The translations under genes were made by a program, and so were the position numbers. Of a stretch of DNA of 14,819 nt, positions 12,493 through 14,358 are shown in pieces. The notes below the pieces were generated by a model. That model saw only the letters and a list, made by a program, of their open reading frames with translations, searched no databases and was not told the origin of the DNA. The stretch comes from Escherichia coli. Lineage in GTDB: Bacteria; Pseudomonadota; Gammaproteobacteria; Enterobacterales; Enterobacteriaceae. The stretch lies in the NCBI RefSeq assembly GCF_003334355.1, contig NZ_QOWP01000051.1; one strand, written 5' to 3'. Every line of letters starts with the position of its first letter. Within the stretch, counting starts at the first letter, position 1.

Positions 12493-12861
12493 TTAGCCTG
12501 GACGCACTCTTTTTTGATCGCGTTTAGCCAGACCATCAACCACCAGATTCCACGAATCGTTGATCAGATCGCGAAGTAACGCTTCGGAGATTTCCTCGCC
12601 GGGATACACCGAAATCCAGTGCTTTTTATTCATGTGATACCCTGGCTTAATGCTTGGGTATATTTGCTGATTTAACAGGGATTTTTGTGGATCGGACTTC
12701 AGATTGATAAAGGGGACGCCGCGTAGCTCCGACGACAGCATAAAAATCTTGCCGCCAATTTTAAAAACATCGAACTCCGGGCCAAAAGGCCAGCAAAGCT
12801 CGACAAAGGGTAACTCAAGGGCCAGGCGTTTCGCCGTTTCGTGCAGTGATTGCTTATCCAT
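12493..12861 (-). CDS. ybdF: Small cytoplasmic protein YbdF (YjbR/MmcQ-like family, function unknown)
   Basis: The track ORF (162 aa) starts at ATG 12981 and would overlap ybdJ. I place the start at ATG 12859-12861 ([19 protein letters not shown]…), 122 aa, with AAGGA ~6 nt upstream. Confidence 0.8.
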
Positions 12862-12925
12862 AAACGTTCCTTTAGGCGAAGGAGAATAAGCAAAGTATGC
12901 CGCGAAGTACGGCGATAATCGACGT

Positions 12926-13174
12926 TTAATCCGCCAGCGAGAACCAGCGTCGCCAGATAAAGCGCAGAACAAAATACTCAATAGCGCCCAGCACTAAAAA
13001 CCACAGACAAAACAATAAAGTGTAAAGCTGACTAAGATCCATCAGATGGAACGTGCTCACCAGTTTTTGTGCCAGCGTCAGCCCCAATGCGGGGGCGGGA
13101 AGCAGCAGGCAAGAGAGGAAAGCCATCAGCAAAATGCCTGCTGCGGTGGTCAAGGTTTCTAAAGGGTGTTTCAT
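12926..13174 (-). CDS. ybdJ: Small inner-membrane protein YbdJ (function unknown)
   Basis: 82-aa ORF ([31 protein letters not shown]…) with two predicted hydrophobic helices. Recognised as YbdJ. Confidence 0.8.
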
Positions 13175-13239
13175 AACATTGTTAAATGTAAGTTAAAACA
13201 CCATTGTCAGGGATATTCTTCTGTAAGGCAATTCCCGAC

Positions 13240-14358
13240 TTAGTCACCGGCCCAGATCTCACAATGCTTTTTCACCAGCCCAATCAGCGAGCCGCCATCG
13301 GCGACGAAATCGCGCATCAGCTGCGCTTCATTCAGACCGCTGACGACCTGGCGATGCAGTGCTTCAATTGCGCTCGATGCGCCAATTTTATGTGCGGAAG
13401 GGGCGATTTTTTCCAGCAATCGCAAGGTATCTTCCGTTAGCGGTCGACGATCACCAGTGTGCGGATCGGTAATGACGCCTTCCAGCCCATAGCGACAGGC
13501 CTGGAAACGGTTGAATTTATACAGCAGGTAATCTTTCTCCTGATGTTTGAACGGGCGTTCCGTCAGTAACCAGTGGGCGGTGGCCTGAATTAATCCCGCC
13601 ATATTTACCGCGTGGCTAAGGGTTAACGGGGTATCCATCACCCGAACCTCCACCGTGCCAAAATGAGGACTGGGGCGAATATCCCAGTGCAGATCTTTAA
13701 TGCTGTCGATCATCGTGGTGTAACTCAAACAGCGAAATAGGGCTTCAAATTGTTGCCAGTTACTGACCCACGGCATCGGGCCATTATCAGGAAAGGCGGA
13801 AAAAATATTCGGTCGTGAGGAGGCAAAACGCGTATCCGTTCCCTGCATATATGGCGACGCGGCGGAAAGGGCGATAAAGTGCGGCACAAATCGTGACAAG
13901 CCGTGCAGCAAATAAATGGCGTCATCGCCACTGGCGCAGCCAACATGGACATGCTGACCAAAAACGGTCGCCTGCTGAATGAGATAACCAAAGTTTTCCA
14001 GCGTGCGTTGATAGCGTTCGTTATCGCATACCTCCTGACGCTGCCATTTCTGAAACGGGTGCGTGCCACCGCCGCAAATTTCCAGATGATGGTCTGTGGC
14101 TGCCTGCAATACGACTTTCTGCATCGCTGAAAACTGCCCGGCAGCCTGGTTGATATCACGGCAAACATCCGTCGCCAGCTCCAGCATACTTTCGGTGATA
14201 TCGTGCTTTACCTCTCCGGCCGTGATCTTATTTTTAACCGCGTCAATCAGCATTGAAGAGTCCTGGCTTAAGTCATAGCCCGGCGGATTAACCACCTGCA
14301 TTTCCAGTTCAATACCGAGGGTAAAAGGTTCAGAAACATGAAAATCGGGTAATGGCAT
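13240..14358 (-). CDS. ybdK: Carboxylate-amine ligase YbdK (GCS2 family; weak gamma-glutamyl:cysteine ligase)
   Basis: 372-aa ORF starting [23 protein letters not shown]. Recognised as YbdK. Confidence 0.92.

Follow-up and report, generated by a model that had tools for sequence, protein, structure and literature searches.

Gene neighborhoods and candidate control signals of ybdK, ybdJ and ybdF in Escherichia coli and other Enterobacteriaceae

A 14,819 nt stretch of an Escherichia coli genome (RefSeq assembly GCF_003334355.1, contig NZ_QOWP01000051.1; referred to below, as a whole, as the window) carries three co-oriented genes, ybdK, ybdJ and ybdF, between positions 12493 and 14358. An initial annotation of the window had singled these out as a tight cluster of poorly characterized genes and suggested that they are co-transcribed. 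The most probable explanation, to which we give a probability of about 0.8, is that they are ordinary, vertically inherited backbone genes of the Enterobacteriaceae with separate ancestral control, and that in Escherichia they are read through as one message because they lie end to end. Publications already cover the genes, their families, a crystal structure for YbdK and the map of the operon, and the locus is known and ordinary. The three genes, and the junction between the last two, are listed here.

13240..14358, minus strand: ybdK, coding sequence (CDS) of 372 aa, an intact open reading frame (ORF) in agreement with RefSeq annotation; ATP-dependent carboxylate-amine ligase of the YbdK family (GCS2)
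12926..13174, minus strand: ybdJ, CDS of 82 aa, intact ORF; DUF1158 inner-membrane protein with two hydrophobic segments
12862..12925, minus strand: ybdJ-ybdF spacer, 64 bp; a junction specific to Escherichia, occupied elsewhere by ramA-romA/ramR and sometimes by further genes as well
12493..12861, minus strand: ybdF, CDS of 122 aa, intact ORF; small protein of the YjbR/MmcQ family

The strand and spacing first given for these genes are exact, as judged from the intact minus-strand frames in the ORF list and from the sequence itself, with gaps of 65 bp between ybdK and ybdJ (13175..13239) and 64 bp between ybdJ and ybdF (12862..12925). RefSeq places the start of ybdF at the ATG at 12861, and a 162 aa ORF beginning with TTG is an upstream extension that overlaps ybdJ.

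Whether the arrangement is conserved was examined by an alignment scan with YbdJ, using one genome per species, which returned 172 relatives. Eighty loci were taken with 7 kb flanks, and the gene order of each was established by tblastn, with the window proteins and the proteins of the inserts as queries. Adjacency of all three genes across genera was not observed. Both ybdJ and ybdF are present in 63 loci, and the gap between them is 64–65 bp in six, all Escherichia, and at least 2254 bp in the other 57. The inserted DNA carries an AraC-type gene and a metallo-beta-lactamase (MBL)-fold hydrolase gene on the opposite strand, and a TetR-type gene on the ybdF strand, always in this layout, and is the ramA-romA/ramR multidrug-response locus. 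RamA was identified by its AraC-type sequence, tblastn and HTH_AraC Pfam calls; the other insert proteins recognized were a RomA-like MBL-fold hydrolase and a RamR-like TetR regulator and, from inserts between ybdK and ybdJ, a P-type ATPase and a resistance-nodulation-division (RND) adaptor, and in some genera a Fes-like esterase gene and further genes also lie within the ram insert. The ramR stop codon is placed –3 to +16 bp from the ybdF start in 53 of the 57 loci, so that it abuts or overlaps that start; the overlap was already remarked upon for Klebsiella by Rosenblum et al. 2011 (PMC3117140). Downstream, adjacency of ybdF and nfsB is near universal (gap of 47–139 bp in 51/54 loci). The conserved partners of YbdF are ramR and nfsB, not ybdK.

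The junction between ybdK and ybdJ is also variable. The two genes are directly adjacent (61–121 bp) in 27 of the 80 loci and in roughly one genus in three, examples being Escherichia, Citrobacter, Phytobacter, Kosakonia, Silvania, Siccibacter, Superficieibacter and one Enterobacter. Other arrangements include the following.

Pseudocitrobacter and Klebsiella aerogenes: P-type ATPase gene, on the other strand, between ybdK and ybdJ (in K. aerogenes, ybdK is 4 kb from ybdJ)
Lelliottia and a related genus: genes for an ATPase and an RND pump between ybdK and ybdJ, about 7.5 kb
Cedecea and Buttiauxella: rearranged order, with ybdJ then ybdK in Cedecea, and ybdJ, ybdG (reversed) and ybdK in Buttiauxella

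Comparison of the upstream regions across genera revealed different promoter-like motifs before ybdK and ybdJ. These, together with two other elements of the spacers, are listed below.

14389..14396, minus strand: TCTATACT, putative promoter; extended –10 motif of the sigma-S type, with the ybdK ATG about 30 nt downstream
13206..13239, minus strand: imperfect hairpin directly after the ybdK stop codon, GTCGGGAAT...ATCCCTGAC followed by AATGGTGTTTT, from the minimum-energy fold
13203..13231, minus strand: sigma-70-like motif of ybdJ, TTGCCT (13231..13226), 17 nt, GACAAT (13208..13203); putative promoter
13181..13197, minus strand: direct repeat TTTAAC-N5-TTTAAC, downstream of the ybdJ –10 motif and ahead of the ATG

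In 34 of 40 loci, drawn from many genera, CTATACT is found 25–48 nt ahead of the ybdK ATG (0.26 in shuffled sequences); its flanks are otherwise unconserved and there is no conserved –35 element. The E. coli version, TCTATACT, matches the sigma-S extended –10 consensus, and this reading is consistent with the stationary-phase induction of ybdK described below. The ybdJ motif, TTGCCT-17-GACAAT, has a single exact match in the window and none in shuffled sequences, and its more general form, TTGCnn-N17-GAnAAT, lies 25–31 nt before the ybdJ ATG in 68/80 loci, with ybdK adjacent or not (0.02 in shuffles). When the 80 nt upstream of ybdJ were aligned for 23 sequences, TTGC and GA.AAT were invariant and exactly 17 nt apart, while the flanks had diverged. 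The repeat between this motif and the start codon recurs, in the conserved form TTTTTAAC-N5/6-ATTAACA, across most genera of the Enterobacteriaceae, and no known regulator site could be fitted to it. The ybdJ upstream motif itself, compared by eye with consensus sequences, gave no convincing fit to the mar/ram-box, the PmrA-box, or sigma-54, sigma-32, sigma-28 and sigma-E promoters. No Shine-Dalgarno sequence precedes the ybdJ start.

The two promoter-like motifs emerged from the cross-genus comparison only; a scan for consensus promoters and terminators made no call in any of the three spacers, the hairpin after ybdK included, and an Rfam search of 11600..14819 at a permissive threshold found no RNA family in the spacers, the sole match being the upstream hok/sok leader. 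The whole 86 nt stretch containing the post-ybdK hairpin folds at z = –2.2, and the hairpin may be the leaky internal terminator of the published transcript map. As a conserved terminator it was rejected, since the stem is not kept even within Escherichia and the conserved bases fit a promoter better. A second hairpin, in which the start codon of ybdJ is sequestered (GGTGTTT/AAACACC), is confined to E. coli and was dropped as unconserved.

Losses of the three genes are also independent. Of 5426 complete E. coli genomes, 5403 contain ybdK and 5094 the ybdJ-ybdF segment, and about 300 have kept ybdK while the segment is gone. In published work, the O89m O-antigen locus takes the place of ybdJ-ybdF, which fits these genomes. 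The reverse is seen in E. albertii NBRC 107761 (L046 5923..7000), where ybdK is reduced to its last ~12 nt, with about 750 bp of unrelated DNA carrying a 234 aa opposite-strand ORF in its place, and the ybdJ promoter motif, ybdJ, ybdF and nfsB are kept. At the Superficieibacter locus, ybdF is absent and ramR and nfsB remain. Joint presence and absence of the three genes was therefore not found. The idea of a meaningful three-gene cluster is not supported, in view of these losses, a ybdJ-ybdF junction confined to Escherichia, the separate promoter motifs and the coupling to ramR. According to the initial annotation, independent promoters and terminators together with a lack of conserved co-occurrence would have told against its proposal; separate promoter motifs and an unconserved arrangement were indeed found, but a loose synteny in the same order is retained within the Enterobacteriaceae. 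An IS1 copy was also seen within the ybdJ-ybdF segment (corresponding to 12493..13174) of at least one E. coli genome (H11).

The co-transcription predicted for the three genes is borne out by published RNA-seq of K-12, and so is not new, but the unit comprises five genes rather than three. The same-strand run continues past ybdF to nfsB after a 93 bp gap (ATG at 12399) and then to ybdG (mscM) after a gap of 107 bp, and in the window the three genes share a strand and short gaps, and lack a strong terminator (there is only the weak hairpin after ybdK). The downstream features are:

12400..12492, minus strand: ybdF-nfsB spacer, where a published figure legend puts the nfsB +1; carries the known nfsB promoter
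11746..12399, minus strand: nfsB, CDS of 217 aa; oxygen-insensitive NAD(P)H nitroreductase (NF008275 at 380 bits), gene 4 of the published operon
10391..11638, minus strand: ybdG (mscM), CDS of 415 aa; mechanosensitive channel by annotation, gene 5 of the published operon

In Conway et al. 2014 (mBio; PMC4161252), this locus serves as a worked example for strand-specific RNA-seq in K-12. The primary transcription unit described there spans ybdK-ybdJ-ybdF-nfsB-mscM; an nfsB-mscM unit arises from a secondary promoter in log phase and declines in stationary phase, and a unit of ybdK alone, induced in stationary phase, stops at an internal terminator. A 2024 preprint likewise places nfsB fourth in a ybdK operon of five genes. 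In an O157:H7 time course, ybdK and ybdG behaved oppositely with growth phase, changing by +2.98 and –2.36 log2, respectively, at the same transition.

Taken together, the ancestral units would be ybdK, ybdJ and ramR-ybdF(-nfsB), whose order and orientation are constant across the family. In this scheme, ybdK would be driven by the sigma-S-type promoter (TCTATACT), with part of its transcripts ending at the weak hairpin that follows it, and ybdJ by its own sigma-70-type promoter (TTGCCT-17-GACAAT). The ram locus would have been lost in the Escherichia lineage, depriving ybdF of the ramR promoter. With that locus absent, ybdF lies 64 bp behind ybdJ, and so in E. coli its expression would depend on transcripts that start at the ybdJ and ybdK promoters and read through, while nfsB would retain its own stress-responsive promoter. 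Parsimony favors loss in Escherichia, the locus being present in all other core genera sampled.

Several points weigh against this explanation. When the 64 bp spacer of E. coli was aligned to both ram flanks of Citrobacter, Intestinirhabdus and Enterobacter, no remnant of ramR or ramA could be recognized, only the ribosome-binding site and ATG region of ybdF aligning, and thus the direction of change, loss rather than gain, rests on parsimony. The order and strand ybdK ... ybdJ ... ybdF-nfsB are kept in most Enterobacteriaceae, and ybdK and ybdJ are still near each other after the rearrangements in Cedecea and Buttiauxella, a nearness that may reflect some selective linkage of these two genes. 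The promoter assignments for ybdK and ybdJ are phylogenetic footprints drawn from sequence, and the counts of 34/40 and 68/80 overstate the independence of the observations, because the sequences of one bacterial family are related. The internal terminator is described in the text of Conway et al. without a coordinate (PMC4161252).

A dedicated module, in which the ligase makes or attaches a small amide-linked product that is then anchored or exported by the membrane protein, the YjbR protein regulates the process and the spacing has been selected for co-expression, would account for the shared strand and the 65 and 64 bp gaps, for the full-length K-12 transcript over all three genes (PMC4161252), and for the usual presence of the trio in one neighborhood in Enterobacteriaceae. 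It is nevertheless very improbable, given that the tight ybdJ-ybdF junction is confined to Escherichia, that ybdF is coupled to ramR in other genera and missing from the Superficieibacter locus, that ybdK and ybdJ have separate conserved promoter motifs of different types, that about 300 E. coli genomes have ybdK without ybdJ-ybdF and E. albertii the reverse, and that the YbdK family is far broader than DUF1158. A narrower proposal, that only ybdK and ybdJ are paired, with YbdJ serving the ligase as membrane partner, regulator or substrate and ybdF unrelated, is quite unlikely. It draws on the direct adjacency in 27/80 loci, on the persistence of a DUF1158 neighbor beside a ybdK relative of 61% identity, and on the two genes remaining neighbors after rearrangement in Cedecea and Buttiauxella. 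However, the promoter motif of ybdJ is conserved in all contexts, many genera tolerate 2–7.5 kb blocks of unrelated transporter genes, on the opposite strand, between ybdK and ybdJ, and each of the two is kept without the other (ybdJ at the E. albertii locus, ybdK in O89m E. coli). YbdK homologues outside the Enterobacteriaceae lack a DUF1158 neighbor, none being found beside the 44%-identical relatives examined, and shared ancestry alone predicts linkage within one bacterial family.

It is possible, if on the unlikely side, that ybdF and perhaps ybdJ belong to a drug and redox stress circuit of RamR/RamA and NfsB, and are orphaned remnants in Escherichia after loss of ramA-romA-ramR. The close spacing of ramR and ybdF in 53/57 loci, the near-universal ybdF-nfsB adjacency and the convergence of ybdJ with ramA in almost all genera all point this way, as does a published 33-fold rise of the 'ybdJ' microarray signal in a multidrug-resistant Salmonella mutant. 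That signal could be antisense read-through from the convergent ramA, however, and deletion or over-expression of ybdJ in Salmonella left antimicrobial susceptibility unchanged (published, as data not shown). The Superficieibacter locus lacks ybdF even though ramR and nfsB remain. We also know of no biochemical link between YjbR proteins and TetR regulators, which further speaks against such a circuit. A more specific version, which we regard as doubtful, would have YbdF, and possibly YbdJ, as working circuit parts in Klebsiella, Enterobacter, Citrobacter and Salmonella, with YbdF translationally coupled to RamR, and YbdJ carrying a private promoter and the TTTAAC-N5-TTTAAC element beside ramA; on this view, loss of ram would have produced the E. 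coli 'operon' by evolutionary fusion, with ybdF rewired onto the ybdJ and ybdK promoters. We prefer the explanation by separately controlled backbone genes, under which the spacing in Escherichia is due to absence of the ram resistance locus and not to a shared pathway. Tight spacing in one genome is a poor guide to function, and work on YbdF and YbdJ would be better aimed at the biology of ramR, ramA and nfsB in Klebsiella, Enterobacter and Salmonella than at the YbdK ligase, with a loose bearing on resistance through efflux and on how NfsB activates nitrofurans.

The family assignments made from the sequence were upheld by profile searches. YbdK matches the equivalog NF010040 over residues 4–370 (581.5 bits; cutoff, 425), and aligns over all 372 residues with PDB 1R8G ('hypothetical protein ybdK', E = 2e-261); it also matches 1TT4 from Salmonella (E = 3e-221). 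Its family is broad, with 4379 clusters at 50% identity compared to 617 clusters at 90% identity for DUF1158. The gamma-glutamyl:cysteine ligase activity of YbdK is weak. Lehmann et al. 2004, as cited in PMC2588565, described YbdK as a carboxylate-amine ligase with this activity in vitro, and the family is placed there in the glutamine-synthetase-fold ligase superfamily. YbdJ belongs to DUF1158 (PF06643), according to Pfam assignments of identical and related proteins, and all DUF1158 matches with a taxon name are from Enterobacteriaceae. Its Kyte-Doolittle profile has two peaks above 1.6 (residues ~14–27 and ~53–65), and the AlphaFold2 model is a low-confidence helical hairpin with helices at 4–24, 28–42 and 47–81 (mean confidence score, pLDDT, of 71). 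YbdJ is a two-transmembrane protein confined to the Enterobacteriaceae. YbdF matches NF007603 (260.5 bits; cutoff, 183) and the whole of the Pfam YjbR model (PF04237, E = 4.3e-24), and the structural comparison called for earlier confirmed a YjbR-like alpha/beta fold. The 'double-wing' DNA-binding label attached to YbdF is a name taken from annotation and denotes a putative function; YbdF is a small YjbR-fold protein that probably binds nucleic acid.

The segment has the gene order of the E. coli chromosome, cusSRCFBA-pheP-ybdG-nfsB-ybdF-ybdJ-ybdK followed by the hokE/sokE region. Many complete E. coli genomes match positions 12400..14819 at 100%, and every gene is named in the RefSeq annotation of one such genome. 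Identity with MG1655 extends from ybdK through 385 nt upstream of it, and the alignment breaks at 14742/14743, where an insertion sequence begins.

14664..14742, plus strand: 5' leader of the hokE toxin mRNA, truncated by IS150; overlaps the 3' portion of the antisense sokE
14743..14819, plus strand: left end of IS150, running off the window, from RefSeq annotation of identical genomes; divergence from MG1655 starts here

The Rfam sok model (RF01794) scores 63.7 bits across the junction (14664..14819; also L001 8265..8420 and 9776..9866), compared to 84.4 bits in the intact MG1655 region (L085 6690..6845). It is the hok-sense strand that this model matches, and IS150 sequence makes up part of the hit above threshold. 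The remainder of the hokE leader lies on the far side of IS150. The 2024 preprint proposed TTGCCT-N17-TACCAT, at –443 from ybdK, as the ybdK operon promoter. In MG1655 this sequence is immediately upstream of sokE (L085 ~6800..6830), and in the window strain it is displaced about 1.4 kb by IS150. It therefore cannot be the sole ybdK promoter in this strain, and was rejected in that role; it is more likely to be the sokE promoter.

The ybdK-ybdJ junction is itself a variable insertion site (L058 1..6512, L086 11132..18078, L087 11109..18310 and L089 11165..14661). In Enterobacter, Lelliottia, Kluyvera and Leclercia it holds opposite-strand genes for an RND pump, its adaptor and a Ca/Mg-type P-type ATPase, and in K. 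aerogenes a NAGPA-domain gene plus the ATPase. A 36 aa ORF was called between the ATPase gene and ybdJ in L087 and L090. The locus is also carried by two assemblies labeled as other organisms, 'Marinobacter sp. B9-2' (PYVH01000101.1), where it is 100% E. coli-like, and 'Chryseobacterium sp. 18061' (CACSKA010000002.1), where it has the layout of Enterobacteriaceae; both assemblies are most likely contaminated or mislabeled.

Compared with known systems, the YbdK of the window shows no sequence-level difference from the GCS2 ligases (PF04107; 1R8G). YbdF falls within the YjbR/MmcQ family (PF04237; PDB 2A1V, 2FKI and 2KFP/3H9X), but is only 18% identical to E. coli YjbR in structural alignment, and is set apart from the family at large by its own Enterobacteriaceae-specific equivalog, NF007603. 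Relative to the published K-12 operon, gene identity, order and spacing are the same, although the cluster as first delimited covers just genes 1–3 of the five, and the window strain has a copy of IS150 385 bp upstream of ybdK that is absent from this site in MG1655. The closest comparison outside Escherichia is the ramA-romA/ramR-ybdF-nfsB locus of Klebsiella, Enterobacter, Citrobacter and Salmonella (PMC3117140), in which the orthologues of ybdF and nfsB follow ramR and that of ybdJ is the gene convergent with ramA. In contrast, Escherichia has no ramA, romA or ramR at this site, and ybdF comes straight after ybdJ, translationally uncoupled from a regulator.

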